Part shown: positions 4,434-61,218 of the stretch, in pieces
Position numbering within the stretch: the first letter of the stretch is position 1
How the letters are laid out: every line of letters starts with the position of its first letter
Assembly: GCA_016188545.1 (NCBI GenBank)
Contig: JACPHO010000002.1
Span: forward strand, 64,013-128,012
DNA length: 64,000 nucleotides
DNA from: Candidatus Shapirobacteria bacterium
GTDB lineage: Bacteria; Patescibacteriota; Microgenomatia; UBA12405
Direction of reading: 5' to 3'
The notes under the pieces: model-generated
What the model was told of the DNA's origin: nothing
Databases searched by the model: none
What the model saw: only the letters and a program-made list of their open reading frames with translations
Position numbers and translations under genes: made by a program

Positions 4434-4500
4434 TGGGAATAATTAAGAATTAATAATTAGGAATTAGGAATTTAGTTTGCTTAATAAATTATTAAAATAT

Positions 4501-13039: not shown

Positions 13040-13111
13040 ACCTTGTGAAAAATCCTAAATCCTAAATTCAAAAGTAAAAAATAAAAACATGATTAGGAAT
13101 TATAGAACAAA

Positions 13112-14032: not shown

Positions 14033-14084
14033 TAATCAATTATCAATTAGGAATTAGGAATTAGCAATTTGTTAAAATGGGAGC

Positions 14085-15053
14085 ATGAGTGAAAATATAT
14101 ACGACACTATAATAATTGGTTCTGGCCCGGCTGGGTTGACGGCGGCAATTTATAACATTAGGGCGAACCTAAGGACAATTGTACTTGGAGGAGATCAGCC
14201 TGGTGGACAACTAACGCTAACAACTGTGGTGGAAAATTATCCCGGGTTTGCCACCGGAATTGGTGGACTAAAACTGATGATGGATATGCAAACTCAAGTA
14301 AAAAATTTGGGGGTGGAGATAAGAAACGCCAAAGTAATGGGCATTTCAAAATTCAAAATTCAAAATTCAAAATTCAAAATTGAATTAGAGGATGGACGGG
14401 TACTGGAGACAAAAGCGGTGATAGTAACGACAGGGGCGAAGGCAAGATGGCTTAATTTACCAAAAGAGAAGGAGCTAATTGGTAAGGGAGTATCAGCCTG
14501 TGCGACTTGTGATGGAATGTTTTTCCGAGACAAGACCGTAGTGGTGGTTGGAGGTGGTGATGTAGCTTGCGAAGATGCAATGTTTTTAAGTAAATTCGCC
14601 TCTAAGGTTTATTTGATTCATAGAAGAGATACTTTACGCGCCCAGGTTTATATCAGAGAAAAAATAAAACTAAATCCAAAAATTGAATTTGTTTGGGATA
14701 CTGAAGTAATAAATATAAATTCAAAAAATGAAAGTCAAAATTCAAAACTTGAAGATATTAAAATAAAAAATAACAAAACTGGTGAGGAAAAGGTTATGCA
14801 AATAGACGGATTGTTTGTGGCGATTGGACACGATCCGGCGACGAGTTTTGTCAAAGATTTGGTGGAATTGAAAGAAACAGGTCATGTGATCGTAGGAAAA
14901 AGTGAAAAGTATCCAACAATGACATCTGTTCCAGGAGTTTTTGCAGCCGGCGACAATGTTGACGACGTATATCGACAGGCAATTATCGCCGCGGGACATG
15001 GAGCAATGGCGGGAATGGATGCTGAGAGATGGCTGGGGGAGAATAAATCTTAA
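14085..15053 (+). CDS. trxB: Thioredoxin-disulfide reductase with an in-frame (AAAATTC)n insertion
   Basis: FAD motif IIIGSGPAGLTAAIY. Redox-active CATCDG. NADPH motif VVVVGGGDVACEDA. A heptamer tandem repeat at 14345-14377 encodes the duplicated KFKIQNSKFKI. Confidence 0.9.
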   Translation: MSENIYDTIIIGSGPAGLTAAIYNIRANLRTIVLGGDQPGGQLTLTTVVENYPGFATGIGGLKLMMDMQTQVKNLGVEIRNAKVMGISKFKIQNSKFKIELEDGRVLETKAVIVTTGAKARWLNLPKEKELIGKGVSACATCDGMFFRDKTVVVVGGGDVACEDAMFLSKFASKVYLIHRRDTLRAQVYIREKIKLNPKIEFVWDTEVININSKNESQNSKLEDIKIKNNKTGEEKVMQIDGLFVAIGHDPATSFVKDLVELKETGHVIVGKSEKYPTMTSVPGVFAAGDNVDDVYRQAIIAAGHGAMAGMDAERWLGENKS

Positions 15054-15085
15054 ATCCCAAACTCAAAAGTAAAAAGTAAAAACAT

Positions 15086-26882: not shown

Positions 26883-27258
26883 AGAAATATTGGCTAAAAA
26901 TCAAGTAGTGGTTTTCTTGGTAATTACGATTGTGTTGTTGGCAGGATTGAAGATAAAATATGGATACAGGGGAGAAGGTGAAAGTCAAAAGTCAAAAGTC
27001 AAAAGTCAAAACGAAGAAGTAAACATAACACCGACAATGACGATGGTGCCAACGACGGATCCGAAAAAGGATTTTCCGTTGAGAAACGAACTACCGTATT
27101 ACGGAAAAGGGTTTGTGGTGGAGAAATACACTTCACCATTGACTTTAAAAATGATTCTTAATGGCGCGACTGAGACATACGCTACCAAAGCGGTTACCGA
27201 CTGGATTAACTCATTTGGTGATGCGATAGGGCAACATAAAATAGAGATACAAAATTAA
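26815..27258 (+). CDS. Small membrane protein with an in-frame (AAAAGTC)n repeat
   Basis: Two TM helices. (AAAGTC/AAAAGT) repeats at 26975-27005 encode QKSKVKSQ. True start may be the internal Met at 26869, which would reduce overlap with the preceding gene. Confidence 0.4.
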   Translation: MKMLGILRFLVHGLFILIMSTGKEILAKNQVVVFLVITIVLLAGLKIKYGYRGEGESQKSKVKSQNEEVNITPTMTMVPTTDPKKDFPLRNELPYYGKGFVVEKYTSPLTLKMILNGATETYATKAVTDWINSFGDAIGQHKIEIQN

Positions 27259-27284
27259 AAATTCAAAAGTAAAAAGTAAAAAAT

Positions 27285-30053: not shown

Positions 30054-30403
30054 ATCTACAGTTTATAAAGTTTATAAGGTTTGTAAAGTTCATAAAGATT
30101 TGATGATGGTTGACGGTGAGGTGAATATGCGTTATTAGGTAAAAATGCTTTGTAGAACAGTAGTGTTAGTAGTAGAGTAGGTGAACAAGTTAATAATTAA
30201 CAATTAATAGTTAATAGTTGGGGATATTTTGAATATAAAATAATGTTAGTAAGCCGATAACCTTGGAGGTTAGTAGTAGATTTGCACGTTTTGGCTTATA
30301 AAACGAGCTTAGATTGGGGTAACCTTCGGGGGATAATGTGAGGATAAAATGTGGACAACTAAGTGGATAAGTATGTCAAGAAAGTGGATAACTTTAGTGA
30401 AGT
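30054..30403. promoter_or_regulatory. dnaA-dnaN intergenic origin element: DnaA-box cluster plus AT-rich 9-mer repeats
   Basis: TGAGGATAA 30338-30346, TGTGGACAA 30349-30357, AGTGGATAA 30361-30369 and 30382-30390 (consensus TGTGGATAA). Four tandem TTYRTAARG 9-mers at 30062-30097. Confidence 0.6.
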
Positions 30404-31756
30404 TTAAAAGGTCGACTTGATTTGGTTGATAAGTGTCCGCAATTGTGGATTAGTTGATAAGTCGGCGGCAACCTTGTCTCGGGCGTGCATGATACTGGTG
30501 TGATCCCGACCACCTAAAAGATGACCAACTTCTTTTAGAGGTAGGTTGATTTCATTGAGAAGGAGGTAGGCGGTAAGATGGCGGGCGGTGACTAAGTCTT
30601 TACGTCGACTGTTACCGCACAGTTCACTAGTTTTTAGATTAAAGTGTTTAGCACAAACGGAAATTATATGGCGAGGAGTGACTTTTTGAGAAAAGGTTGA
30701 GGCTGATGGAGAATCCGGGCTGAGAAAACTTTCAACAGTCTCAATGGTAATTGTGTGGATATTCTGGGATAGAGCAATGGCAGCAAGCTGCTGGACTTTA
30801 CCTTCGATATCTCGAGTGTTTGATTGGAGGTTATCAGCTAGAAACTGAGTGGCATCTGAGGCAATGACTATCCCCTTTTCGTTCGCTTTTTGGGTGATAA
30901 TAGCTGACCTCATTTCATAATCTGGGGGTTGGATGTCAACTGTTAATCCACCCATAAAACGTGAAACTAGCCGATCTTCTAGATCTTTAATATCGGATGG
31001 TTTACGATCCGAAGTGAGAATAACTTGCTTGCCGGCCATGTGAAGGGCATTGAAAGTGTGGAAAAATTCTTCTTGGGTGTAATCTTTACCGGCTATAAAC
31101 TGGATATCATCGACCAGGATACAGTCGAGATGGCGATATCTTTCTTTGAATTGATTGATGGATTTTGATTTTAGAGCTGCAATAAGCTCATTTCCAAAAG
31201 TTTCGGCGGGAAAGTATTTTATTTTGAGCGAAGAATTATTCTTGAGTAATTCATGTCCGATAGCTTGCATTAAGTGGGTTTTTCCAACCCCTACCCCACC
31301 CCAAATAAAGAAGGGATTGTAGGAAAGTCCGGGATTTTTGACGATTCCTTGGGCGGCGGCATAAGCGAAGTTATTACTGTTACCAACAATTAGATTTTCA
31401 AATGTGTATTTGGGGTGTAAGTTGGAACGGATAGAGTTGCTGTTTTGGATGGATGGTGGATTGTAAGTAAATAATGGGCCAGCTGGAGTGGCGACTGACT
31501 CGGCTTTAATAGGTTCTTGAACGATGAATTCAAGACTGTTGCTATTCTTGGTTTGGTTATCGAGAGCACTTTTAAAGAAAGAGTAGTACCTTTTTTGATT
31601 TATATCTGCGAGGTAGGCATTGGAACAGGCAATAGTAGCGACATTATTAGAGATGGCAATTAACTGAGTTTTTATTATAAAGGTCTGGTAAATTGAAGGC
31701 GCCAAAATTACATGAAGTTCCTCCTGAGTATTTTTCCAAAGTTGATCTAAGTCCAT
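30404..31756 (-). CDS. dnaA: Chromosomal replication initiator DnaA
   Basis: Walker A GGVGVGKTHLM. Box VII DDIQFIAGK. C-terminal DNA-binding HTSIMHARDKV. The ORF extends to 31843 but the extra 29 aa (…YVFTFYFLLFTLEV) come from an (AAAAGT)n repeat. The likely start is Met at 31756 (MDLDQLWKNTQEEL). Confidence 0.9.
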   Translation of the reverse strand: MDLDQLWKNTQEELHVILAPSIYQTFIIKTQLIAISNNVATIACSNAYLADINQKRYYSFFKSALDNQTKNSNSLEFIVQEPIKAESVATPAGPLFTYNPPSIQNSNSIRSNLHPKYTFENLIVGNSNNFAYAAAQGIVKNPGLSYNPFFIWGGVGVGKTHLMQAIGHELLKNNSSLKIKYFPAETFGNELIAALKSKSINQFKERYRHLDCILVDDIQFIAGKDYTQEEFFHTFNALHMAGKQVILTSDRKPSDIKDLEDRLVSRFMGGLTVDIQPPDYEMRSAIITQKANEKGIVIASDATQFLADNLQSNTRDIEGKVQQLAAIALSQNIHTITIETVESFLSPDSPSASTFSQKVTPRHIISVCAKHFNLKTSELCGNSRRKDLVTARHLTAYLLLNEINLPLKEVGHLLGGRDHTSIMHARDKVAADLSTNPQLRTLINQIKSTF

Positions 31757-31852
31757 GGGAGAAACTTCTAAAGTAAAAAGTAAGAAATAAAAAGTAAAAA
31801 CATAGTATAGATACGTTAAATTTAAACAACGATACTGGGGCAAAGTTTCGAG

Positions 31853-31884
31853 TTATCCACATCATAATAAATTAGTTTTCCACA
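31853..31884. promoter_or_regulatory. DnaA boxes upstream of dnaA (TTATCCACA 31853-31861, TTTTCCACA 31876-31884)
   Basis: One perfect consensus DnaA box and one 8/9 match in the dnaA 5' region. Coding-strand bias switches here. Confidence 0.55.
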
Positions 31885-32712: not shown

Positions 32713-32761
32713 TTTTTTTCTCGCTAGTCAATGCTGGCGCGTTGAAGGCTTCGAAAAAAAA
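32713..32761. repeat. Conserved hairpin-forming intergenic element, copy 1 (T-run/stem-loop/A-run)
   Basis: TTTTTTTCTCGCTAGTCAATGCTGGCGCGTTGAAGGCTTCGAAAAAAAA. One of three copies sharing CTCGCTAGTCAATG…GTTGAAGGCTTCGAAAAAAA. Confidence 0.6.
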
Positions 32762-32807
32762 CATTATCTCGCTTTGTTGATCATTACTTTTTCAAGTAGA
32801 ATAGGAT

Positions 32808-42164: not shown

Positions 42165-42214
42165 TTTTTTCTCGCTAGTCAATGTGCAACGCACGTTGAA
42201 GGCTTCGAAAAAAA
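42165..42214. repeat. Conserved hairpin-forming intergenic element, copy 2
   Basis: TTTTTTCTCGCTAGTCAATGTGCAACGCACGTTGAAGGCTTCGAAAAAAA. Inner stem CAATGTGC/GCACGTTG with G-U wobble. 20 nt after the DUF4012 gene stop. Confidence 0.6.
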
Positions 42215-42341
42215 CATTATCATCGAGATCGATATTATTTAAATGAAAATTTCTAACTCCTAACTTCTAAAATAAAAATTCAAAAGTAAAAAGTAAAAAC
42301 ATAGACTTGAAAATTAACTTCCAATTTCCAAACAAACAACA

Positions 42342-42662
42342 ATGACCAATGACCAAAACCTCAAAAAAAACTTCATTAGGAAGAAGGAAGATTTTGTGTG
42401 CGAGCATTGTGGAGAATTGGTGGTGGGAGATGGATATACTGATCATTGTCCAAAATGTTTGTGGGCAAAACATGTGGATCGATTAATTCCTGGGGATCGG
42501 GAAAGTGACTGCAAGGGGATGATGGAACCAATTGGGACAAAATTCAAAATTCAAAATTCAAAATTCAAAATAAATTACAGATGTAATAGATGTGGGCATG
42601 AGTTTGGAGTGAGAGAGGGGAAGGGGGATGATAGAGAGAAGTTGATGGGGCTAATGTTATAA
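42342..42662 (+). CDS. Zinc-ribbon protein (RNHCP-like Cys clusters) with in-frame (AAAATTC)n insertion
   Basis: CEHCGE…HCPKC…CNRCGH Cys/His pairs. Heptamer repeat at 42536-42568 encodes KFKIQNSKFKI, the same peptide as the trxB insertion. Confidence 0.45.
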   Translation: MTNDQNLKKNFIRKKEDFVCEHCGELVVGDGYTDHCPKCLWAKHVDRLIPGDRESDCKGMMEPIGTKFKIQNSKFKINYRCNRCGHEFGVREGKGDDREKLMGLML

Positions 42663-42969: not shown

Positions 42970-44958
42970 GTGTTCAATGGTATAATCCTACGCATGCAAA
43001 ATAAAGAGAGTATTTGGAAAAAAATTGTAAAGATACTGGGAATAGGTTCAAAGAAAGCCGAAAAAGAGAAAGATAGTGGTATACCGGATGAGGTAATGAA
43101 GAATCTGCCTCCAGGGGTGAAAATAAAGAGAATTGAAATAGGGCCGTCGCAAATAATGAAGGGGATACTTTACGTAGTAATAATTTATTGGACTCTAACA
43201 GTACTAAAACAAGTCTTCTTGCCGGAAGAAATTGTAAAAGCACCACTGTCACAAGTGGTTGAGGTAATTAAGAAAAATGAAGCGGAAGAAATAACGGTGA
43301 TGGATAATGAGATTGTTGTAAAGCTGAAAAATGAGGGGAAATTATTGGTATCGTCAAAGGAACCCTCAACTTCAATGGCGGAGTTGTTGCAAAGAGAAGG
43401 AGTCGACGTGGCTAGCGTCAAGTTTAGTGTTGAGAATAGAACTGGCTGGAAGATGTTTTTGGAAATATTTGGAACACTAATATCAATTGGGTTGCCAATA
43501 CTATTTATCATCTGGTTTTTTGGGCGACAGCAAGGAGGGGCAGGAGGAATCTTTGGCTTTGGGAAATCGACCGCCAAACTATTTATTAAAGGTAAACAAA
43601 ACTTAACATTTAAGGATGTGGCTGGGGTTACGGAAGCTAAAAAAGACCTGGAAGAAATTGTTGATTTTTTGAAACATCCGGAAAAATACAGAAAAATGGG
43701 AGCAAGGGCACCTAAGGGGGTACTGTTGGTTGGACCGGCGGGGGTGGGAAAAACACTTCTGGCCAAGGCGGTAGCGGGAGAGGCGAATGTGCCTTTTTAT
43801 GCAATGGCTGGTTCGGAATTTATGGAAATGTTGGTGGGAGTTGGAGCTTCTAGAGTTCGAGATCTGTTTGGGACTGCTAAAAAAGCAGGTAAGGCAATTA
43901 TTTTTATTGATGAAATCGACGCTATTGGGAGAATGAGAGGTGGACTTGAAGGGGGACATGGAGAAAGGGAGCAAACATTAAATCAAATTTTGGTAGAAAT
44001 GGATGGTTTTGAGGCAAATACTGCGGTAGTAGTATTGGCGGCAACTAATCGAGGAGATCTGTTGGATTCGGCATTACTTCGTCCGGGTAGATTTGATCGA
44101 AGGGTGATGTTGGAAATGCCAGACTTGGCAGCGCGTGAAGATATCATAAAGATTCATGCTAAGGGCAAACCTTTTGGTAAATCGGTCCGTTGGCCGGCAG
44201 TGGCAAGAAGAACAGTAGGGTTTTCAGGAGCTGATCTGGAAAATATGCTAAACGAGTCGGCAATTAAAGCAGCGAGGGAGAATAAAACAAAAATCGAAAT
44301 GGTAGATATTGAAGAGGCAGCCTTGAAGGCAAAACTTGGCTCGGAAAAGAAAAGGGAACAGTCTGATGAGGATAAATTAATGACGGCTTATCATGAGGCG
44401 GGACATGCAATCGTAAACTATGTGGAGGGATTGGACCCGGTTCACCGGATTTCGATCGTTTCACGAGGAATGGCACTGGGATTTACATTGATTCCACCAC
44501 AGAAAGATAGGGTTCACGAAACAAGGTCAAGATTGGTAAAACAGATGGCAATGGCAATGGGTGGAAGAGCGGCTGAAGAAATTATATTTAAAGATATTAC
44601 AACGGGAGCTAGTAGTGACATTAGTCATGTAACCAATATTGCCAGAAATATGGTGGTGGATTGGGGAATGTCAGAACTGGGACCAGTAAATTATGGACCA
44701 CAGATGGATATAAGTGAAATGGGTAGAGCGTGGATGGAGCCGGCCAAAATATCTGATGGAATGCAACAGAAAGTTGACGATGAAATTAAAAAATTCGTTA
44801 ATATCGCATTGGATAGGGCTAGAGAAATCCTTAAGAAGGAACGTAAAAAGATGGATGAGCTGGCTAAAGTGTTAATGATCAAGGAAAGCTTGGATGATGT
44901 GGAGTTTGAAGAGTTGATGTCTAAAGAAGTAAAGCCAAAAGTAAAAAGTAAAAAGTAA
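42970..44958 (+). CDS. ftsH: ATP-dependent zinc metalloprotease FtsH
   Basis: Two N-terminal TM helices. Walker A LLVGPAGVGKTLLAKA. Walker B IIFIDEIDAIG. SRH ATNRGDLLDSALLRPGRFDRRV. Zn site HEAGHAIV. C-terminal KPKVKSKK encoded by the (AAAAGT)n repeat. Confidence 0.9.
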   Translation: MFNGIILRMQNKESIWKKIVKILGIGSKKAEKEKDSGIPDEVMKNLPPGVKIKRIEIGPSQIMKGILYVVIIYWTLTVLKQVFLPEEIVKAPLSQVVEVIKKNEAEEITVMDNEIVVKLKNEGKLLVSSKEPSTSMAELLQREGVDVASVKFSVENRTGWKMFLEIFGTLISIGLPILFIIWFFGRQQGGAGGIFGFGKSTAKLFIKGKQNLTFKDVAGVTEAKKDLEEIVDFLKHPEKYRKMGARAPKGVLLVGPAGVGKTLLAKAVAGEANVPFYAMAGSEFMEMLVGVGASRVRDLFGTAKKAGKAIIFIDEIDAIGRMRGGLEGGHGEREQTLNQILVEMDGFEANTAVVVLAATNRGDLLDSALLRPGRFDRRVMLEMPDLAAREDIIKIHAKGKPFGKSVRWPAVARRTVGFSGADLENMLNESAIKAARENKTKIEMVDIEEAALKAKLGSEKKREQSDEDKLMTAYHEAGHAIVNYVEGLDPVHRISIVSRGMALGFTLIPPQKDRVHETRSRLVKQMAMAMGGRAAEEIIFKDITTGASSDISHVTNIARNMVVDWGMSELGPVNYGPQMDISEMGRAWMEPAKISDGMQQKVDDEIKKFVNIALDRAREILKKERKKMDELAKVLMIKESLDDVEFEELMSKEVKPKVKSKK

Positions 44959-45034
44959 AAAACTATTTTGCTTGTTCTTCGAGATTGATTATCCGTTGCC
45001 ATCCTGCGCTAAAGCTACGGACTGGTAAAGAGGA

Positions 45035-46726: not shown

Positions 46727-46832
46727 ACCTTAGAAAAAAATTTTCAATTTTTAATTTTTAATCAATTTCCAATTTTTATATTTTAAAATTTAAAAAACAG
46801 AATGCGATTTGGTAGGTAAGATTATACAGGAT

Positions 46833-46925
46833 CGTAAAACGTAATATGTAACACGTAAAACGTAATACGTAACATGTAACACGTAATACGCAATCAGTAA
46901 AATGTAACAAGTAACAAGTAACAAG
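46833..46925. repeat. Degenerate tandem 8-mer array (GTAAYAYG / GTAACAAG) in a divergent intergenic region
   Basis: cgtaaaacgtaatatgtaacacgtaaaacgtaatacgtaacatgtaacacgtaatacg…gtaacaagtaacaagtaacaag lies between the divergently transcribed 563-aa and AAA-ATPase genes. Confidence 0.6.
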
Positions 46926-52072: not shown

Positions 52073-53488
52073 TTAGAACTGCATTGATTCGGGTTGTAAT
52101 TGGCGGGCATAGGTGTTGAGAGTGTAGGGATTGCCTGGATCAAAGCTGTGACTGTCGGTGGAAGAAAAAGGACGATGGGGATCGTTGAGAGTGACGTCGG
52201 CTTCCTGGACATATTCAGGGATGAGGTTTTTGCGAGCGACTTCATCGATTTTCATATTGGCTTCCTGAGCGGGTTCGATGTGGTACTCGTAGGTGAGAGA
52301 GTGGGAGAAGGTCATAGCGGTCTCAAAGACAGTACCAAACTCTTCAAGGGACTGTTTGATGGCATAGAGCAGATCATTTGGTTTGTCGCGAATCTCATTT
52401 TTTTCATAGGTACCACAAAAATTGATGGGTGGAATGTCTTGACCGTCATAGTTGATAATGGCCAGTGAGTTAGCCGAAGCAAGAGATTCACCGCGGGGCA
52501 TGTTAGTTTTTTTGATTTCAGGGTTAACATCACGTTCATGGTCGTCGTTGTAGACAAAGACGCGACGCATACTGGGGCCACTGCCCTCAGGCCCTAAGGT
52601 TTTGTAGAGTTTGCAGGCTTCACTGGGGTCAAGAGCCTGAAAAGAGTCACTGGATGGGTCGGTAAAGTCACTGAGTCGGCCTGGAGTGGGAACGGGGAGG
52701 GAAGGATTAGTAGGATCATTGTTGTAGCAATTGTCATCGGGGTTGTAAAAGATTAGATTTTCTTCGGTGCCAGGAAGACAACGTCCAGTAGCAGGGTCGG
52801 TATTGACCAAAGATAGAGTGGGGTTTTGTTCCATGGTGATAGCAATGTCTTCGAGTTGAACTTTTTGACCGTCATCTTGATCGGAGTCGGTGACTGGTTT
52901 GGCGGAACCACCGTCGTACCAAGCAACTTGTTCATTACTGACAACTCCACCACCGGAGCCATTGGCTAATTTGACCGCTTTGACCAGTCTTTGGCCAACG
53001 AGACATTTGAGGACATCTTCGGGCATATTTTTGTTACCGGTGCCAATTGACCCTTCAGCATTGTCCGGAGTATAGGACATAAAGGAGCGGTTGATACTAT
53101 CAGTGTTGAGAAAATTCTTGGGATGGCTGTTGGTGGCTCGGTCGCGACCAAGGGCGGCAGGATTGGTCCAAAAACCTTTGTTGAATATGGGGGGACGGCC
53201 TTGGATTCGATTGACGTCGTAGGGGACAAAGGTAGTAGTTTGTTCACCAGTATTGGGATCAGTGGTGGTTTTTTCTTCAGGTTGGAAAGTTTGGGAAATG
53301 GTGAATTTACCGGTGCAAACTAGACCGACACTATTGGGATAATAGATGGAGTCATCAGAGAGAGCGGTGTCTGCAGGAGGTGAACCAGGGTCGGATCGTT
53401 TGATGATAATTGGGTTGAGAGCCAGAGCAGGAAAAGTAAAAAGTAAAAAGTTAAAAGTTAAAACAATAAATATGAAAACAGGTTTCAT
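52073..53488 (-). CDS. Secreted 471-aa protein of the T4SS/pilin locus
   Basis: Signal peptide MKPVFIFIVLTFNFLLFTFPALA-LNP encoded by an (AAAAGT)n repeat. Asp/Pro/Thr-rich mature protein. Function unknown. Confidence 0.5.
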   Translation of the reverse strand: MKPVFIFIVLTFNFLLFTFPALALNPIIIKRSDPGSPPADTALSDDSIYYPNSVGLVCTGKFTISQTFQPEEKTTTDPNTGEQTTTFVPYDVNRIQGRPPIFNKGFWTNPAALGRDRATNSHPKNFLNTDSINRSFMSYTPDNAEGSIGTGNKNMPEDVLKCLVGQRLVKAVKLANGSGGGVVSNEQVAWYDGGSAKPVTDSDQDDGQKVQLEDIAITMEQNPTLSLVNTDPATGRCLPGTEENLIFYNPDDNCYNNDPTNPSLPVPTPGRLSDFTDPSSDSFQALDPSEACKLYKTLGPEGSGPSMRRVFVYNDDHERDVNPEIKKTNMPRGESLASANSLAIINYDGQDIPPINFCGTYEKNEIRDKPNDLLYAIKQSLEEFGTVFETAMTFSHSLTYEYHIEPAQEANMKIDEVARKNLIPEYVQEADVTLNDPHRPFSSTDSHSFDPGNPYTLNTYARQLQPESMQF

Positions 53489-53896
53489 TTAGTGGCTGGG
53501 GATAATAAAGTTGGTAACGTCGGCACCGGTAATTTTTTTGATGAGTTGAAGAATTAGGTAGGAAGAGACAACACCAACTAACCCAAGAATAGACATGGTA
53601 AGAGTGGATGAGGCAGTGGCAACTCGTTTTTGATCACCACTACTAAAAAGATATTGAAAACCACCATTGATAAACATGACAAAAAAAATGATACCGGCGA
53701 GACCAACTATGACTTGGAGGATGTTACCAAAAAGACACTCGAGACCTTGGAGAGTAGCGACATCGCCTTGAGCGAGGCATTTTCCAGACCAGGTGGATTG
53801 GGCTTGGGCTGGAATAGCGAAAGAAAAAAGAAAAAAGTAAAAAGTAAAAATAAATTGGAAAAAACGATTTCTCATGGGTAGATTATACAAAATCAA
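53489..53896 (-). CDS. VirB2/TrbC-like pilin paralog 1
   Basis: Sec signal peptide (…AIPAQA-QS), then two hydrophobic helices separated by the loop FSSGDQKRVATAS. About 105-aa mature protein. Confidence 0.45.
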   Translation of the reverse strand: MILYNLPMRNRFFQFIFTFYFFLFSFAIPAQAQSTWSGKCLAQGDVATLQGLECLFGNILQVIVGLAGIIFFVMFINGGFQYLFSSGDQKRVATASSTLTMSILGLVGVVSSYLILQLIKKITGADVTNFIIPSH

Positions 53897-53941
53897 CGTT
53901 GATTTACGAAATATGATTCATGATTTAAGAATAGAACAAAA

Positions 53942-53965
53942 ATATCCCCGAGAAATCGGGGATAT
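53942..53965 (-). terminator. Perfect 10-bp stem hairpin followed (minus sense) by a T-rich tract, between pilin paralogs
   Basis: ATATCCCCGAGAAATCGGGGATAT. Read on the minus strand it is followed by TTTTGTTCTATTC, 25 nt after the stop of the 53990..54385 pilin gene. Confidence 0.55.
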
Positions 53966-53989
53966 TTTGATTTGTGATTGATTCCTTGG

Positions 53990-54385
53990 TTATTGGAAGG
54001 AAGGAACTTTGAATCCAGAGAGAAGCTGAATACCGAAAACGGTTTCGATGAGCTTCATAATGGCAAAAGCAGCAAAGACAATAGCCAAACCAATGAGGGC
54101 ATTGGTGATTTGGGCTCGGGCGGCTTCGACGGCTTTTTGATCACCTTCGGACATGACCCATTTGAGACCACCCCAGATGAGGATGAAGAAGAAAACCAGG
54201 GCGACAACCAACATAACTAAACTAATGGCACCGGAAATGATACCACCAAAGGTTAATTTGGTAAGGTTGTTCCAATTGCTGTCGTTGGGAATCAGTTTGA
54301 TATCTTGGGCGTAAACCGGAGCAGCGATAGCTGCGTATTGGACGAGATCTTTGAACTTTTGGACCATAATAGGTGTGTTTTTCAA
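53990..54385 (-). CDS. VirB2/TrbC-like pilin paralog 2
   Basis: Hydrophobic helix 1 (GGIISGAISLVMLVVALVFFFILIWGG), loop MSEGDQKAVEAARAQ, helix 2 (ALIGLAIVFAAFAIMKLI). Confidence 0.45.
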   Translation of the reverse strand: MKNTPIMVQKFKDLVQYAAIAAPVYAQDIKLIPNDSNWNNLTKLTFGGIISGAISLVMLVVALVFFFILIWGGLKWVMSEGDQKAVEAARAQITNALIGLAIVFAAFAIMKLIETVFGIQLLSGFKVPSFQ

Positions 54386-54430
54386 TAAATTATTAATAAT
54401 TAGCTAATTGTAACAGTAAAGTAAATAAAA

Positions 54431-54820
54431 TTAAAGTGTAGGCCAAGTGATGGTAAGAGTGCTTAGTCCAGGGATACCAAGGACTATACCGACAAACTTG
54501 AGGATGGCAAAAATAGAAAAAACGACAAACAGACCGATGGTGGCATAAGTCATTTCATTCTTGCCTGACTCCCACCTTTTGGGATCACCCTCAGAGGCGA
54601 TCAGGTGATAGCCAGCAAAAACTATGTGCCAAACATAGTAAATTATGCCGACAATGAAAAAGATGGAAAAAACGGTTGAAAGGACGCTGTTAAAATAGGT
54701 TTTGGGAGCTGTAGAAGAGGTACAGTTTTTGAGAATGGGATTGCAAATGACCGCATGGACTGGGGTAGAAAAGTAAAAAGTAAAAAGTAAAAAGTAAAAA
54801 GTGGAAATTAGTTTTTTCAT
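54431..54820 (-). CDS. VirB2/TrbC-like pilin paralog 3
   Basis: Signal peptide MKKLISTFYFLLFTFYFSTPVHA. Helix, loop IASEGDPKRWESGK, helix. Confidence 0.45.
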   Translation of the reverse strand: MKKLISTFYFLLFTFYFSTPVHAVICNPILKNCTSSTAPKTYFNSVLSTVFSIFFIVGIIYYVWHIVFAGYHLIASEGDPKRWESGKNEMTYATIGLFVVFSIFAILKFVGIVLGIPGLSTLTITWPTL

Positions 54821-54822
54821 AT

Positions 54823-55179
54823 TTAGAGACCCATTTGGGTGAATAAAGCATTAATGTCGAGGACATTGGTGATACCAGCCAGGGTGGCAATGAGAGAACC
54901 AAGGCCAACAGCAACGATAACAATGGTAAGACCAAGGACACCATTGGTGAGTCGGCTACGGGCAGCAGCCATATTTTTTTCGTCTCCTTGGGAGTTAATG
55001 TAAGAATAACCGGCGAGAATTATTTGAATGGCAAACCAAATAACAGCAAAGATGGTGAGAACACCAATTACTTGACCAACTATTTTTTCAAGAGCAGCGA
55101 CACCGTTGCCAGCAGGTTTGACACCTGGGCCAATGATTTCGGGAACATTAACATCAGCGAGTAGGCGATTAGGGTCCAT
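54823..55179 (-). CDS. VirB2/TrbC-like pilin paralog 4
   Basis: Same helix-loop-helix architecture with loop YINSQGDEKNMAAARS. No long signal peptide. N-terminal region may be processed differently. Confidence 0.4.
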   Translation of the reverse strand: MDPNRLLADVNVPEIIGPGVKPAGNGVAALEKIVGQVIGVLTIFAVIWFAIQIILAGYSYINSQGDEKNMAAARSRLTNGVLGLTIVIVAVGLGSLIATLAGITNVLDINALFTQMGL

Positions 55180-55555
55180 AAATGACTGGGGCTAAAATTT
55201 TAATCCCGGTAAATCTTTCGACAACCGAGGCAATTACAAAAGCGGAGGCAATAATAACCATACCGAGGATACTCTGCCAGATTTGGGTCCAAGCAGTGGC
55301 GGCAGCTTTAGGGTCGCCAGCCGAGTTGATATAAGCATATCCAGCTAGAATTAGCTGGATGATCATATAGATACCACCAATAGTACCGGCGAATTTTAGG
55401 ACATTACCTAAAAATATGAACAGGCCCTGACCGTTGGGACTGGCGTATTTGGGGAGTGGGTTGGTGATGCCACCGATGACGCCTTGAGCTTGCGCTGGCA
55501 GCGCAGAGTAAAAAGTTAAAAGTAAAAAGTTAAAAGTTAAAAAAACTTGTTTCAT
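55169..55555 (-). CDS. VirB2/TrbC-like pilin paralog 5
   Basis: Signal peptide MKQVFLTFNFLLLTFYSALPAQA-QG. Helix, loop YINSAGDPKAAATA, helix. Confidence 0.45.
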   Translation of the reverse strand: MKQVFLTFNFLLLTFYSALPAQAQGVIGGITNPLPKYASPNGQGLFIFLGNVLKFAGTIGGIYMIIQLILAGYAYINSAGDPKAAATAWTQIWQSILGMVIIASAFVIASVVERFTGIKILAPVIYGP

Positions 55556-55559
55556 TTAT

Positions 55560-55901
55560 TTATAGTCCGGAGTTTAATATTTTTAGACCAGTAGTAACTT
55601 CAACTATTTGAACTATGAAGTAAGCGGTGATCACAATGACGAAGCCAATAATAGCGTCGGTTACTAAGGCTTTGCCTTGAGCAGACTTTTTGGAATCACT
55701 ACTGCCTGCGCCAATTATAACCATTAGACCGCCAAAAATCAAAAGAATAAGTAAAATTGTGCCAGCAATGGTAAATGAGTTTTTTACGATTACCGAAATC
55801 AATGATGAAAGAGTGGGAAAAGTTTGTGAGAGAGTTTTACCTGTGCCAGTGGGTGGATCAATAGCGATGGCGAGGAGGCGATTCATGGCGTAATTATACA
55901 A
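55560..55901 (-). CDS. VirB2/TrbC-like pilin paralog 6
   Basis: 113 aa. Helix (TIAGTILLILLIFGGLMVIIGA), loop GSSDSKKSAQGKA, helix (AIIGFVIVITAYFIVQIV). Confidence 0.4.
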   Translation of the reverse strand: MYNYAMNRLLAIAIDPPTGTGKTLSQTFPTLSSLISVIVKNSFTIAGTILLILLIFGGLMVIIGAGSSDSKKSAQGKALVTDAIIGFVIVITAYFIVQIVEVTTGLKILNSGL

Positions 55902-56049
55902 TTAAATTACAAATTACAAATTTCTAATTACTAATTGATTATACAATAAAATAAAACCGCCGAATATATCGGTAAAATTTGGTATATTGACTGGTGTAAA
56001 ATGATGTTATAATACGCTCAATTAATTATAAAAAACTCCCCTACTCTTT

Positions 56050-56912: not shown

Positions 56913-58310
56913 ATGTTTGGAATTAACCTTAAACAATATAGACAATTTTTGACTAAAAATGAGCGGAATAAGGTATATCTAAGAAAAAACAGCTCATTAG
57001 GTAGAGCAATCGCAGATAGTAAGCATAGAACAAAGATACTTTTAGGAAAGGCTGGTGTGGGTGTACCAGCGTTAATAAAGAGATTCAGAGACAGCTTCGA
57101 GGTGGAGAAATTTAAATGGGAAAAATTAGATGGTAATTTTGTAGTTAAACCGGTATCAGGATATGGGGGGGAGGGAATACTGATAATTAGAAAAATCCTA
57201 AATCCTAAATCCCAAGTCCAAAATAAAGAGACGAGGTGGCAAATGATGGATGGGAAAATAATCTCGGAATCAGGAATAAAAAACCACTGTCAAGACATAT
57301 TAGCTGGAAAATACAGTCTACATGGCATGCCAGATACAGTACTAGTAGAAGAACGAATAAAAATTCATCCAATGTTTTTGGCGATTACAAAGTCGGGGAC
57401 TCCAGATATTAGAGTTATTGTTTATAACAAGGTACCAGTGATGGCGATGTTTAGAATTCCAACTGAAAAAAGTAAGGGTAAAGCAAACCTGCAACAAGGA
57501 GCGATGGGTCTTGGGGTAGACCTGGCAACTGGAATTACCACTTTTGGAATTGAGGGAAAAAGTGAAGAGATAAAAAAATTATATGACAGTGGTAAGAAGA
57601 AGTGGATTAAAGTCAATGGAATTAAAGTACCTTTGTGGAGAGAAATACTTGAAACAGCGGTAAATTGTCAGAAGGCAATACCAGGGCTGGGGTTTTTGGG
57701 AGTGGATGTGGTGTTGGATAAAGAAAGGGGCCCCATGGTGTTGGAGGTAAATTCGCGTCCGGGGTTGTCAATTCAAATATGTAACAAAGCTGGATTAAAA
57801 CAGAGAATGGAGAAGGTGGATGATATCGACGTGAGAAGTACAAACCATGCAGTGACTTTGGCAAAGTATTTGTTTGGTGAAAGTTTTTTTGAAAAGGTAG
57901 AGCAGAAGGAAAAAATAAAAACAGTGGAGCCTTTGGAAACAATTAAAGTAAAAATTCCTAAGGGATTTCGACCGGAACTGAGTAAAAGTCCGATTTTACG
58001 CATGGGTAAACATCGAGTGGTAGAAGTGAGGGCGAAAATTGATACAGGAGCGTTTAGAAGTTCGATTGATGTAGTCTTGGCTGAAAAGTTGGGTTTACTC
58101 CAAGATAATCGGGTACTATATTATCGACATTACCGATCATCCCTGGGGAAAAATAAAGATCGACCAGTAGTGGGAGCAACTTTTTGGCTAAATGGTAAAA
58201 AGGTAACTACGGCGGTAAACGTAGCCGATAGAGCAAAATTGAGGACAAAATTTCTCTTAGGTCGAAAAGACTTGGAGGGTTTTCTTATTAGTGCAAAAAG
58301 AGAAAAATGA
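56913..58310 (+). CDS. Alpha-L-glutamate-ligase-related ATP-grasp enzyme fused to a C-terminal retropepsin-like (DTGA) aspartic protease domain
   Basis: ATP-grasp motifs VKPVSGYGGEGILIIRK and VLEVNSRPGLSIQ. C-terminal VRAKIDTGAFRSSIDVVLAEKLGL carries the D-T-G-A aspartyl-protease signature. Contains an in-frame (AAATCCT) repeat encoding KILNPKSQ. Confidence 0.65.
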   Translation: MFGINLKQYRQFLTKNERNKVYLRKNSSLGRAIADSKHRTKILLGKAGVGVPALIKRFRDSFEVEKFKWEKLDGNFVVKPVSGYGGEGILIIRKILNPKSQVQNKETRWQMMDGKIISESGIKNHCQDILAGKYSLHGMPDTVLVEERIKIHPMFLAITKSGTPDIRVIVYNKVPVMAMFRIPTEKSKGKANLQQGAMGLGVDLATGITTFGIEGKSEEIKKLYDSGKKKWIKVNGIKVPLWREILETAVNCQKAIPGLGFLGVDVVLDKERGPMVLEVNSRPGLSIQICNKAGLKQRMEKVDDIDVRSTNHAVTLAKYLFGESFFEKVEQKEKIKTVEPLETIKVKIPKGFRPELSKSPILRMGKHRVVEVRAKIDTGAFRSSIDVVLAEKLGLLQDNRVLYYRHYRSSLGKNKDRPVVGATFWLNGKKVTTAVNVADRAKLRTKFLLGRKDLEGFLISAKREK

Positions 58311-58334
58311 TTTATGATTTAAGATTTATGATAT

Positions 58335-59345
58335 ATGAATAAAACAAAAAAACAGACAAAGGTAGCATTATTTTTTGGAGGAATGATAAGTCAACACTTG
58401 GTAATGATCCGTAAGGCAGCTAAAAAATTAGGAGTGGATCTTGACTTGGTTTCCTACAACAGAGTCTGTTTTGACAGTCAGGAAAAAAGAGTAAAAATTC
58501 GGGGAAACTTGGGAAGATGGGGGAGTGCTGAGGAATGGATCAACTTGGGAGATTATGACGTTCTTTTTTTTCGGACAACCGGAAAACACTGGGAAGAAGT
58601 AGATTTGGTGGTTAAAGAGGTGAAACAGATGAATGGTAAAAAACCAGTGATTGTTGATCCAATCATTTTAAATGGAAAACCCTCAATGGCTTGCAAAGCA
58701 TACCAAATGTTGGCACTGGGTGAAGCAGGGATTGATGTACCAAGAAGCATTTATGGAAGTTTGTGGTATTTATACGATACAATGAAAGAAATATCCAATA
58801 ACCAAATTTCAAGAAACAAACAATTACCAATATCCAAATTTCAATTTCCAATAATAATTAAAGGGTCAGGAGGAGATCGGGGGACAAGAGTATTTAAAGC
58901 AGACAACTTAGGAAAAATGGAAATTTTGGTAAGAGATTTACGAAAAACTGAAACAGAAGAAGGCAAGAGATATATGTTGCAGGAATTTATTCCAAATGAT
59001 GGGGATTTTAGAGTATTTGTATTGGGTGGAAAAGTGTTAGGAGTGATGAAGCGTTCTGCAAAGCAGAATTCAACAGAATTTAGAAATAATTATAGCGCGG
59101 GTGGAAGTGTTGAAGTGGCGGAATTACCGGTGGAAATAAAACAATTGGCGGTAAAAGCGGCTAAGGCATGCGGTCTGGCTGTGGCTGGTGTTGACGTGGC
59201 TTTTAGAAATAACGATCGAAGCCGACCGGTAATCTGGGAAGTAAACAAAGGGCCACAGTTTAAGGGGTTTATGGAAGCGACTGGGATTGATGTACCGAGA
59301 GAGATAGTTAAATATTTAGTTAGCTTACGTGATAATTCTCAATAA
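58335..59345 (+). CDS. RimK-family ATP-grasp ligase
   Basis: FRVFVLGGKVLGVMKRSAKQNSTEFRNNYSAGGSVEVAELP…CGLAVAGVDVAF…PVIWEVNKGPQFKGFMEATGIDVPREI matches the RimK core (fRv.V.ggk…R.NlhrGG…GvD…lEvN.sPg). Confidence 0.75.
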   Translation: MNKTKKQTKVALFFGGMISQHLVMIRKAAKKLGVDLDLVSYNRVCFDSQEKRVKIRGNLGRWGSAEEWINLGDYDVLFFRTTGKHWEEVDLVVKEVKQMNGKKPVIVDPIILNGKPSMACKAYQMLALGEAGIDVPRSIYGSLWYLYDTMKEISNNQISRNKQLPISKFQFPIIIKGSGGDRGTRVFKADNLGKMEILVRDLRKTETEEGKRYMLQEFIPNDGDFRVFVLGGKVLGVMKRSAKQNSTEFRNNYSAGGSVEVAELPVEIKQLAVKAAKACGLAVAGVDVAFRNNDRSRPVIWEVNKGPQFKGFMEATGIDVPREIVKYLVSLRDNSQ

Positions 59346-59347
59346 TC

Positions 59348-59397
59348 TTTTTTCTCGCTAGTCAATGTGCGGCGCATGTTGAAGGCTTCGAAAAAAA
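59348..59397. repeat. Conserved hairpin-forming intergenic element, copy 3
   Basis: TTTTTTCTCGCTAGTCAATGTGCGGCGCATGTTGAAGGCTTCGAAAAAAA. A single C-to-U change in the inner stem (G-C becomes G-U) relative to copy 2. Starts 3 nt after the RimK-like stop codon. Confidence 0.6.
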
Positions 59398-60357: not shown

Positions 60358-61218
60358 ATGAGGAAAAGTTTGTTGATTACTTACTTGGTTTTGACGGTGG
60401 TTTTTGGTTTTAATTCGAGGGTGATGGCGGTAGGTGAACCAGCTAAAGAAGGTCAATTGTGTGGTGGAATTGCAGGGATAATCTGTGCTAGTGGATTGAC
60501 ATGTAAATATTCGAACAATACTGGAGTGGACAGAAGTGGGGTGTGTGTTAGAGTCTTAACTCCGACACCAAGAAGACCAGCCCAAGAAGGTCAATTGTGT
60601 GGTGGAATTGCAGGGACAATCTGTGCTAGCGGATTGAAGTGTGAAATGAATCGGTGTGGAGATGGTGGTCAGAAGTGTCCTGATGGATCCGGGGTATGTG
60701 TGAAAATGGCAACGCCGACACCAGTTAGGTTGGCGCAGGAAGGACAGGTGTGTGGTGGCATATCTGGGATAATGTGTGCCAGTGGACTAACTTGTAAATA
60801 TTCGAGTAATACAGGAACAGATAGAAGTGGGGTATGTGTGAAAAGTGTGGCGAAGGTAACTCCAACTTGTGTACCCAGACCAGCATGTTTGGACTTACCA
60901 AATCCATGTCGAATGCCGGAATTACCAGAATATTGTCGAAAACCGAGAGTAACTCCAACCTGTGTTCCAAGACCGGCGTGTTTGGATTTACCAAATCCAT
61001 GTCGAATGCCGGAATTACCAGAATATTGTCCAAAGAGAGGGGTGAAAGGTGACGCTAATGGTGATAGTAAAGTTGATCTGGCGGATTTTTCTATTTGGAA
61101 GAAAGAGTATATAGGTGAGATAAAGACAAAGAGAGCTGATTTTAACGGTGATAGTAAAGTTGATCTGGCGGATTTTTCTATTTGGAAAACTGGTTATTTA
61201 GTTAATATTAAAAAATGA
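60358..61218 (+). CDS. Secreted Cys-rich repeat protein with C-terminal dockerin-type double repeat
   Basis: Signal peptide. Four copies of a ~34-aa module (EGQLCGGIAGIICASGLTCKYSNNTGVDRSGVCV). Two near-identical VTPTCVPRPACLDLPNPCRMPELPEYC modules. C-terminal DANGDSKVDLADFSIWK twice (Ca-binding dockerin pattern). Confidence 0.6.
   Translation: MRKSLLITYLVLTVVFGFNSRVMAVGEPAKEGQLCGGIAGIICASGLTCKYSNNTGVDRSGVCVRVLTPTPRRPAQEGQLCGGIAGTICASGLKCEMNRCGDGGQKCPDGSGVCVKMATPTPVRLAQEGQVCGGISGIMCASGLTCKYSSNTGTDRSGVCVKSVAKVTPTCVPRPACLDLPNPCRMPELPEYCRKPRVTPTCVPRPACLDLPNPCRMPELPEYCPKRGVKGDANGDSKVDLADFSIWKKEYIGEIKTKRADFNGDSKVDLADFSIWKTGYLVNIKK

Follow-up and report, generated by a model that had tools for sequence, protein, structure and literature searches.

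A window of 64,000 nucleotides from the genome of a Candidatus Shapirobacteria bacterium (contig JACPHO010000002.1) carries the same short heptamer microsatellite, (AAAATTC)n, inside two unrelated protein-coding genes. One encodes the thioredoxin reductase TrxB and the other a small zinc-ribbon protein with an RNHCP domain. The original prediction regarded these tracts as candidate slipped-strand contingency sites or as recent microsatellite intrusions, which raises the question of what a heptamer repeat is doing in the reading frame of a housekeeping gene. Our analysis points to a different answer. The AAAATTC tracts are probably part of a genome-wide population of short heptanucleotide arrays, produced by slippage and passed through a filter of selection, in a subset of the Microgenomates, a lineage of the candidate phyla radiation (CPR). 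The arrays in coding DNA are more likely by-products of this genome-wide repeat process than gene-specific on/off switches.

The heptamer tracts of trxB and the RNHCP gene

The trxB gene (14085..15053, plus strand) encodes a thioredoxin-disulfide reductase of 322 aa that is 100% identical to a Candidatus Shapirobacteria protein at NCBI. The protein matches solved thioredoxin reductases (TrxRs) along residues 2-320 (E = 4.6e-83 to 5uth), and the redox motif CATC at 139-142 (C139-A-T-C142) and the N-terminal G12-S-G-P-A-G17 are invariant in the alignment. With this redox motif, the FAD (flavin adenine dinucleotide) and NADPH Rossmann motifs and similarity over its full length, it is a low-Mr TrxR. 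Codons 87-99 (ISKFKIQNSKFKI) are encoded by a perfect (TTCAAAA)5.3 array (14345..14381, plus strand) at a beta-hairpin tip of the FAD domain, and the translation around it, GISKFKIQNSKFKIELEDG, contains KFKIQNSKFKI. An AlphaFold model (mean predicted local distance difference test score, pLDDT, 85) places strands at 84-89 and 97-101 with a loop at 90-96, all at a local pLDDT of 80-90. Among 60 aligned homologues the array coincides with a hypervariable loop between two conserved strands, and the strand on which it ends holds the conserved anchor residue F97.

The second gene (42342..42662, plus strand) encodes a zinc-ribbon protein of 106 aa. An identical protein, P0121, carries the RNHCP domain PF12647, and the conserved Cys/His pattern of the family is present, with C20, C23, H35, C36, C39, C57, C81 and C84 invariant. 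A perfect (CAAAATT)4.9 array (42538..42571, plus strand) encodes codons 66-77 (TKFKIQNSKFKI) at a hairpin tip before the second CxxC knuckle, and the surrounding translation, IGTKFKIQNSKFKINYRC, again contains KFKIQNSKFKI. In the AlphaFold model a strand at 60-69, a turn at 70-73 and a strand at 74-81 (pLDDT 88-91) form a long hairpin with the array peptide at its tip; I77 and Y79, in the strand on which the array ends, are conserved anchor residues. By sequence the protein has no solved relative, and a Foldseek search of the PDB found no match better than E = 0.09, the hits being faint likenesses to zinc ribbons.

The shared heptamer and the identical peptide that had been reported for two unrelated genes are thus borne out by the perfect period-7 arrays and by the translations. 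Both tracts are real, with small shifts of their limits: the one placed at 14345-14377 extends to 14381, and the one placed at 42536-42568 lies at 42538-42571. Perfect 7-nt periodicity is not obtainable from selection on protein, so these are microsatellites at the DNA level. It is also correct that a heptamer affects the frame: both tracts are in frame, and a change of one or two units would shift everything downstream.

The common peptide has a simple arithmetical basis. Because 7 and 3 are coprime, any heptamer array is translated into one cyclic 7-aa peptide in all three frames, and one unit therefore always gives one peptide, up to phase. In this genome the codons TTC AAA ATT for F-K-I already make up 1.3 units of TTCAAAA. 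The unit and peptide common to trxB and the RNHCP gene follow from the cyclic peptide, from the small number of translatable units and from the conserved F-x-I strand that both arrays abut. Across the whole window, tandem dimers of AAAATTC are confined to these two tracts; the shared unit does not support a link between the two genes. Ectopic conversion between the two arrays was considered and rejected, as there is no flanking homology beyond the array.

Comparison with relatives shows how old these sites may be. Loop DNA was taken from 25 Microgenomates trxB loci. The nearest relatives of the window TrxB (80-87% identity) have a loop of equal length that is not repetitive (KDETNDKLFNL), and since those at 85-87% keep this length the tract cannot be described as inserted relative to them. 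Elsewhere the same loop is encoded by arrays of other units, namely (AATTACG)4.6 in L023 and L002, (ATGTCAG)3.9 in L012 and (AGATCTC)4.4 in L016, together with degenerate AATTTCC-like arrays in L003, L007, L014 and L017. These arrays begin after V-K codons and end at the conserved F-E-V-E-L strand. At the protein level, the loops of P0010 (KLQTSNFKI) and P0035 (NLKFKIFKI) also look array-like.

The RNHCP hairpin behaves in the same way. Of 119 homologues, 94 have a 15-residue hairpin (YEKGxFKI) and 24 a 17-residue hairpin with a 7-aa internal period (e.g., FQISNFKFQI, FSISNFQFSI, FRISNFEFQI and CQMTNVKFQI). The DNA of four 17-residue forms consists of heptamer arrays in one common register and length, with units GAATTTC/AAATTTC in L081, NAATTTA in L082, CAATTTT in L084 and AAATTCA in the window; further arrays at this hairpin are (GAATTAC)n in L085 and (AAACTTC)n in L086. 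An invariant AATTY core gives the conserved F, I and N in three frames, and variation between lineages is confined to the unit's two free positions. Both genes could be paired in five genomes, and in every one of them the presence or absence of an array is concordant at the two sites: arrays occur at both in the window and in the genomes of L002/L081 and L082, and at neither in those of L001 and P0060/P0218.

The nearest relatives do lack the array at trxB, as a recent intrusion would have it, but distant lineages are array-encoded at both sites, at the same codons and in the same register and length with other units, which speaks against such an event. No copy-number or frameshift variant was found among the 25 trxB loci, the 119 RNHCP homologues or the 39 members of seven clusters with at least 90% identity; the cluster members differ by point differences or by wholly different units, at constant array length, and all retrieved trxB and RNHCP genes are in frame. 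Judging from these alignments, the trxB and RNHCP sites appear to be long-lived array sites that are repeatedly homogenised, in concerted evolution under a length constraint. Exact-sequence look-ups of the window TrxB and RNHCP proteins among contigs gave no match, and no sister strain with at least 90% identity was found.

One pair of sequences records how an array allele can move. L085 and L086 are contigs of 4.3 kb each that come from separate runs of a single project and are identical except at base 2897 and at 26 differences within a 58-nt patch. The patch is the RNHCP hairpin array, (GAATTAC)n encoding LRITNYEFQI in the one and (AAACTTC)n encoding LQTSNFKYKI in the other, at equal length. 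A third, more divergent lineage, L208, has exactly the allele of the L086 patch (2897-2985 in L085/L086; 220-579 in L208). L086 is a genuine recombinant in which short-tract homologous recombination, of 58 to about 175 nt, moved an array allele between strains. The identity to the L208 allele rules out a slippage product, and with no more than about 9 nt in common at the right junction a k-mer chimera of the assembly is unlikely. Rewriting by a cassette or by a diversity-generating retroelement was likewise rejected: the 26 differences involve all bases and are not adenine-specific, and the identity of the patch to L208 points to recombination.

TrxB holds a second tract. Read by eye, a decayed five-unit array (AATTCAA AAAATGA AAGTCAA AATTCAA AACTTGA; 14718..14752, plus strand) encodes a second variable hairpin loop (NSKNESQNSKLE). 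The loop, residues 212-223, sits between strands in the AlphaFold model, and in the relatives P0059 and P0270 it reads NYELPITNYEL. The window TrxB exceeds the solved TrxRs in length at two places, the loop with the perfect array and the loop with the decayed one.

A different small element occurs in frame in the first TrxB loop of other Microgenomates (L005, L006 and L009; e.g., at about 10240-10300 of L006). Its peptide is NPSKSPLDRGDF or NPSKSPLSKGDF and its DNA forms a hairpin (TCTCCCTTGTCAAAGGGAGA); many TrxB matches (P0014, P0034, P0039, P0057 and others) have it too. In P0142 a similar hairpin-like segment is an N-terminal extension of the RNHCP protein (PYPQPFPLTGQGSKEG).

Period-7 arrays across the window and in other genomes

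A census of repeat units in the window found that the two AAAATTC tracts are not special. A scan for periodicity (score at least 11) gave 21 period-7 arrays, and for periods 5, 6, 8, 9 and 10 it gave none; we take the 21 as a lower bound. When perfect runs of 2.5 units or more are counted, period 7 has 22, period 5 has five and each of the periods 6 and 8-12 has at most one. In 100 simulations of the window under a third-order Markov null, the mean was 0.05 period-7 arrays and the maximum 1. The density is approximately 3.3 arrays per 10 kb. Arrays prefer intergenic DNA, with 10 of the 21 fully intergenic and 3 straddling gene ends in a window that is approximately 8% non-coding; about 40% lie in or touch coding DNA and are translated. 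They measure 2.5-5.3 units (18-39 nt), with the exception of one degenerate tract of approximately 13 units (46833-46925).

At least 12 different units occur among these arrays, and a few dominate. AAAAGTA makes up five pure and three composite arrays, and AAAATTC, AAATCCT and AATTAGG at least two arrays each; in L081, AATTACG is present at five loci. Composite arrays are built of blocks of one unit followed by blocks of a one-base variant, for example two AAAGAAA units followed by two AAAGTAA units in the window and three AGTTAAC followed by three AGTGAAC in L002, and such blocks of mutated units are the footprint expected of unit-by-unit duplication. The A-rich strand of 19 of the 21 arrays is the plus strand, which is also G-rich throughout: GC skew keeps one sign across the whole window, and at third codon positions (GC3) it is +0.48 for plus-strand genes and +0.45 for minus-strand genes. 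Outside arrays, A-rich rotations of the main unit are 2.75 times commoner than their complements on the plus strand, and this background composition makes the polarity of the arrays partly expected.

Where an array can lie inside a gene depends on stop codons. Among 14 plus-strand unit families, only AAAATTC, AAAGTCA, AAATTAC and AAAGAAA are open in sense. Apart from AAAAGTA at the end of ftsH, the arrays of at least three units inside plus-strand genes are made of AAAATTC (twice) and AAAGTCA (once). The last is a perfect (AAAGTCA)4.4 array (26981..27011, plus strand) in a 147-aa membrane protein, where it encodes ESQKSKVKSQN in a linker after a predicted transmembrane helix; it had been read as an (AAAGTC)n hexamer at 26975-27005. 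Similarly, a supposed (AAAAGT)n hexamer at 44925-44958 is in fact an (AAAAGTA)3.6 heptamer (44937..44961, plus strand) that runs through the ftsH stop and supplies the last six codons (KVKSKK) and the TAA; FtsH of L081 and L082 is without this tail. AAAAGTA is closed in sense and open in antisense, and its coding use is limited to the ftsH stop and to minus-strand signal peptides. The (AAATCCT)n tract of an ATP-grasp gene (57193..57212, plus strand) does encode the in-frame KILNPKS that had been noted, but it has only 2.9 perfect units, and as its unit contains TAA it cannot grow further in frame.

The minus-strand signal peptides belong to a gene cluster (52073-55901, minus strand) for small type IV secretion system (T4SS) pilin-like proteins and a 471-aa secreted protein. 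Read on the minus strand, the plus-strand (AAAAGTA)n becomes (TACTTTT)n and encodes YFLLFTF. In four genes such an array encodes the hydrophobic core of the signal peptide, and an AxA-type cleavage motif follows each. The arrays, all on the minus strand, are (TACTTTT/AACTTTT)n in the 471-aa protein (53432..53463, MKPVFIFIVLTFNFLLFTFPALA), (TACTTTT/TTTCTTT)n in a small paralogue of the T4SS pilin-like genes (53820..53850, MRNRFFQFIFTFYFFLFSFAIPAQA), a perfect (ACTTTTT)4.9 in a T4SS pilin-like protein (54769..54802, MKKLISTFYFLLFTFYFSTPVHA) and (AACTTTT/TACTTTT)n in another small paralogue (55511..55542, MKQVFLTFNFLLLTFYSALPAQA). Of the six paralogues, the one at 54769..54802 was checked, and it matches the T4SS pilin family PF18895. 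L207 has an orthologue of the 471-aa protein (62% identity) in which a perfect (TTTTTAC)4.9 array lies in an equally long signal peptide, and orthologues in L081 have (TAGTTTC/CAGTTTC)n, which gives LILVSSFQFPVF in the signal peptide.

In the opa genes of Neisseria, T/C-rich CTCTT pentamer repeats encode the hydrophobic core of the signal peptide of surface proteins, and switching is proven. The four signal-peptide arrays at 53432-55542 have the same arrangement, with a 7-nt unit in place of 5 and with the L207 signal peptide unchanged in length. By this analogy they would be the best candidates in the window, and the likeliest site, for real phase variation.

Related genomes carry similar arrays in a patchy way. 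Among Microgenomates loci we counted 47 arrays in 478 kb, of period 7 only and in many but not all loci. L002, L081, L082, L003, L023 and L014 have several each, and L001, the closest relative (TrxB 85% identical), has none in its trxB loop and none in 21 kb. For 34 of 44 arrays in these relatives, the A-rich strand is also the G-rich one. Some units are common to several genomes: AATTACG occurs in L002/L081, L003, L023 and L082, AATTAAG in the window and L082, and AGATCTC in L016 and L084. Further afield, tracts of (AAAATTC)4 or longer are present in at least 120 contigs from metagenomes, at 26-65% GC; many of these contigs have further period-7 arrays but few arrays of other periods, and genomes with heptamer arrays seem to be common in environmental data. 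In 80 of these loci (L087-L166) there is no RNHCP homologue and a single TrxB-like gene (39% identity), with the tract outside the aligned part. A 100-nt composite array at a contig end of L207 (15263-15365) passes from TTTACTC to TATTACG to (TATATCG)n and shows stepwise unit replacement along one array. L046 and L066, from Acidobacteria, also have several such arrays.

Origin and turnover of the arrays

We propose that arrays arise, and are homogenised again and again, through strand slippage or template switching in steps of 7 nt, and that this process would favour arrays whose A-rich strand is also the G-rich one. Inside genes, arrays are filtered by selection. Those of at least three units occur there only if the unit is open in sense and the 7-residue-periodic peptide fits the local structure. 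Such places are the tips of beta-hairpins in TrxB and RNHCP, a linker, the C-terminus of FtsH, whose tail takes its stop codon from the array, and the signal-peptide cores of the minus strand. Each lineage would then replace the unit at orthologous codons while register and length are kept. The structure sets the phase of the array, as in each of the two proteins the array ends on a conserved F-x-I strand; three further units on the upstream side would duplicate strand and turn and lengthen the hairpin. Transient misalignment or template switching is a candidate means of changing the unit without frameshifted intermediates.

Several points weigh against this account. The mechanism of 7-nt slippage is one that we infer, and no result accounts for the period of 7. 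Homogenising one unit at a time needs frameshifted intermediates; none is present among the retrieved alleles, and turnover at constant length is unaccounted for. A few units recur at many loci (AAAAGTA at eight or more) and in several genomes (AATTACG in four), which purely local slippage does not predict and which dispersal or a sequence-specific factor might explain. In a nearest-neighbour analysis the RNHCP protein, with the hairpin masked, leaves too few columns to settle whether the array hairpins are monophyletic. Finally, the census covers 64 kb of the source genome.

A bolder version of the proposal is that a strand-polarised process with a 7-nt ruler continually rewrites short segments of otherwise conserved genes in a subset of Microgenomates, namely the hairpin tips of TrxB and RNHCP and the signal-peptide cores. 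The DNA unit of such a segment would turn over in concert, with length and structural role preserved, and the process would also make new modules (signal peptides, and C-terminal tails together with their stop codon) from non-coding arrays. We offer this tentatively and think it rather unlikely to hold. If true, CPR bacteria would have a way of evolving protein segments, and perhaps of varying surface proteins, that has not been described before.

Two rival explanations keep some standing. The first is the contingency reading of the original prediction, in which trxB, the RNHCP gene and, above all, the pilin-like secreted proteins are turned off and on when a tract slips by one or two units, and these ON/OFF cycles keep the arrays homogeneous. 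Perfect arrays imply recent slippage, and a concerted change of unit needs repeated loss and gain of units. Four arrays lie in the signal-peptide region of T4SS pilin-like or secreted proteins, where the likeness to the CTCTT repeats of opa has been pointed out above. Both the trxB and the RNHCP tract are simple sequence repeats (SSRs) inside coding sequences with a unit not divisible by three, like the (AAGACTC)n of neuO in E. coli K1, whose reading frame stays open only when the number of copies is a multiple of three (PMC13001214). That repeat, however, occurs in 3-53 copies, most often 20, with OFF alleles in approximately 66% of genomes and a gain or loss of one unit in 7% of cells in culture (PMC13001214), and the heptanucleotide repeats of hmw in H. 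influenzae have 13-38 copies (PMC2651432). The trxB and RNHCP tracts, at 4.9-5.3 units, may be too short for frequent slippage, against the 13-53 units of documented heptamer switches. We found no positive evidence of switching: array length is constant and every trxB and RNHCP gene retrieved is in frame, and where near-identical strains have different alleles, the sequence changes and the length stays the same. TrxB is a redox enzyme with a housekeeping role, and of the gene classes in which switching is usual (surface, host interaction, restriction-modification) only the pilin-like genes are members. Most arrays are intergenic or at places without any switching logic. We therefore regard the contingency reading as unlikely.

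The second rival, which we consider about equally improbable, holds that the arrays are cis-elements for a genome-specific trans factor with a 7-nt footprint, such as a single-strand binder of the oligonucleotide-binding (OB) fold or cold-shock type or a nucleoid protein, acting on translation initiation, mRNA stability or chromosome organisation, with the coding copies as tolerated spill-over. The dominance of few units in each genome and their recurrence across genomes would fit, as would the consistent strand polarity. Many arrays touch start or stop codons (the RNHCP ATG in L081 and L082; 27251-27282 and 58307-58338 in the window). MacGregor proposed translational regulation, with heptamer binding of the CspB type, for TAACTGA repeats (PMC4679880). 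Against this, one 64-kb window has at least 12 units, the polarity is largely predicted by the 2.75-fold A-rich excess outside arrays, no candidate factor was identified, and the slippage-and-filter account explains the coding arrays without one.

It is very improbable that a microsatellite or a small mobile element entered trxB and the RNHCP gene recently and independently. The two tracts do have identical units, the closest trxB relatives are without the array, and the long class of RNHCP hairpin exceeds the majority class by two residues. Yet the TrxB loop is as long as in its nearest relatives, arrays in the same register occur in distant lineages at both sites, and a mobile element or miniature inverted-repeat transposable element is rejected by the lack of terminal inverted repeats or target duplications and by array limits that fall on conserved codons at either end. 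Chance and faulty assembly can both be dismissed as sources of the tracts, with 21 arrays observed against 0.05 expected, all but the tract at 46833-46925 being 18-39 nt and so shorter than reads, and equivalent arrays present in independent assemblies from NCBI, JGI, ENA and Logan.

Comparison with known repeats and further elements of the window

An excess of heptanucleotide repeats has been on record since 1990, with the short tandemly repeated repetitive (STRR) sequences of cyanobacteria, and since 2007, with the survey of Mrazek; it is unexplained and has so far been treated as intergenic. As that survey is related in PMC4679880 and PMC4692102, heptanucleotides are the most abundant class of long SSRs in many bacteria, and slippage over the footprint of the polymerase is one hypothesis. 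The same two sources describe an intergenic bias and the dominance of few units per genome, and the former gives Burkholderia, cyanobacteria, actinobacteria and Xanthomonas as the ten genomes richest in 5-11-nt repeats. The arrays of the window resemble the STRR sequences of Calothrix and Nostoc and the GGGNATC repeats of Xanthomonas and Nostoc in their exact period of 7, their many dispersed short arrays, their intergenic preference and their few dominant units per genome; there, too, length and sequence vary between related genomes and slippage is the favoured origin. They differ in their host, a small-genome CPR bacterium, and in their units, which are A/T-rich rather than G-rich and without G-quadruplex potential. 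They differ as well in the share of arrays that is translated and in orthologous coding sites that keep the array and change the unit. The described units TAACTGA, GGGAATC and GGGGAYT have no match among the window units, so that this is a similar kind of feature with another unit family.

The TAACTGA arrays of the Beggiatoaceae (MacGregor 2015, PMC4679880) are also heptamers, in 2-6 copies and mostly just upstream of start codons. In that study stop codons in one orientation limit where TAACTGA can lie, and the reverse orientation gives the 7-aa periodic LSVISYQ with predicted beta structure (PMC4679880). Beggiatoaceae have one dominant unit, in contrast to the many units here, and here the arrays are in conserved proteins (TrxB, RNHCP, the FtsH tail and signal peptides). 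The repeats of neuO and hmw share with ours the heptamer unit, in the 5' coding region or promoter, the frame kept at copies divisible by three and the 7-aa periodic peptide. They differ in their typical 13-40 copies, documented copy-number polymorphism and OFF alleles, whereas the arrays here have at most 5.3 copies, lie in housekeeping genes, and show constant length and no OFF allele among the sequences compared. The Borg extrachromosomal elements (PMC9879509) also have fast-evolving, locally arising tandem repeats that add peptide segments in DNA of uncultivated microbes; there the repeats create disordered regions, and here a 21-nt, 7-aa super-period falls in structured ones (hairpins and signal peptides).

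We found no published work on SSRs in CPR or Patescibacteria in the literature searched. As far as we could find, three features are new: heptamer arrays at this density in a small-genome CPR lineage, the translation of approximately 40% of them into structured parts of conserved proteins, and the conservation of coding-array position across lineages with concerted unit replacement at constant length. The same codons of two conserved proteins, array-encoded in many lineages with a different unit in each, are natural replicates from which the rates and rules of turnover (concerted evolution, length constraint and the stop-codon filter) could be measured in metagenomes. Such arrays are translated into working protein parts, including the cores of signal peptides. 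For annotation, low-complexity peptides like KFKIQNSKFKI or FTFYFLLFTF in CPR proteins should be taken as repeat-derived but genuine, and an in-frame microsatellite in a housekeeping gene is not automatically a phase-variation switch.

The remaining arrays of the window lie between genes or across their ends. Around trxB, a composite array of two ATCAATT, two AGGAATT and one AGCAATT unit (14035..14069) nearly fills the 52-nt divergent spacer upstream of the gene, and L003, L005 and L017 have arrays at the equivalent place; (AAAAGTA)2.6 (15065..15082) lies 12 nt past the trxB stop codon, and L003 and L025 also have arrays downstream of the gene. Upstream of the RNHCP gene is the composite array AAAATAA AAATTCA AAAGTAA AAAGTAA AAACATA (42265..42299), and in L081 and L082 (AATTACG)n reaches up to the RNHCP start codon. 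Another composite array, AAAATTA AAAATTC AAAAGTA AAAAGTA (27251..27282), spans a stop codon and ends 2 nt before the next start codon, and (ATGATTT)n (58307..58338) bridges the ATP-grasp stop codon and the start codon of a RimK-like gene. The others are (AATTAAG/AATTAGG)n (4441..4472), (AAATCCT)2.6 (13050..13067), (AATTTTT)n (46739..46762), which is one of the two T-rich exceptions to strand polarity, and (AAATTAC/TAATTAC)n (55904..55936), upstream of the pilin-like gene cluster. The longest array (46833..46925), of degenerate CGTAACA/AGTAACA units, is in a 340-nt divergent spacer between a DUF6909 gene and an AAA_14/DUF4143 gene.

An AT-rich heptamer array (30184..30219) lies in the spacer downstream of dnaA, beside a 374-aa open reading frame (ORF) that is probably dnaN. 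The dnaA gene itself is at 30404-31843 on the minus strand, and the spacer (30054-30403) is oriC-like: in addition to the array it has four DnaA-box-like sites (30339-30391) and an AT-rich 9-mer repeated 4.2 times (30060-30097), and two more boxes are at 31853-31884. The strand asymmetry of the window is extreme and independent of transcription (GC3 skew approximately +0.45 on either strand), with no reversal at the oriC-like region; in the L002/L081 genome the skew appears to switch between trxB and dnaA.

Two further repeats were noted in the window. A conserved element beginning TTTCTCGCTAGTCAATG occurs in three copies (32717-32775, 42168-42225 and 59351-59367), approximately 60 nt long in the two copies read, at 6-27 nt past the stop codons of rpmH, a DUF4012 gene and the RimK-like gene, and it may be a terminator-like or small-RNA element. 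The ORF 60358-61218, whose neighbour is cohesin/dockerin-like, contains a tandem duplication of 93 nt at 60856-61034 (1.9 copies, 91% identity).

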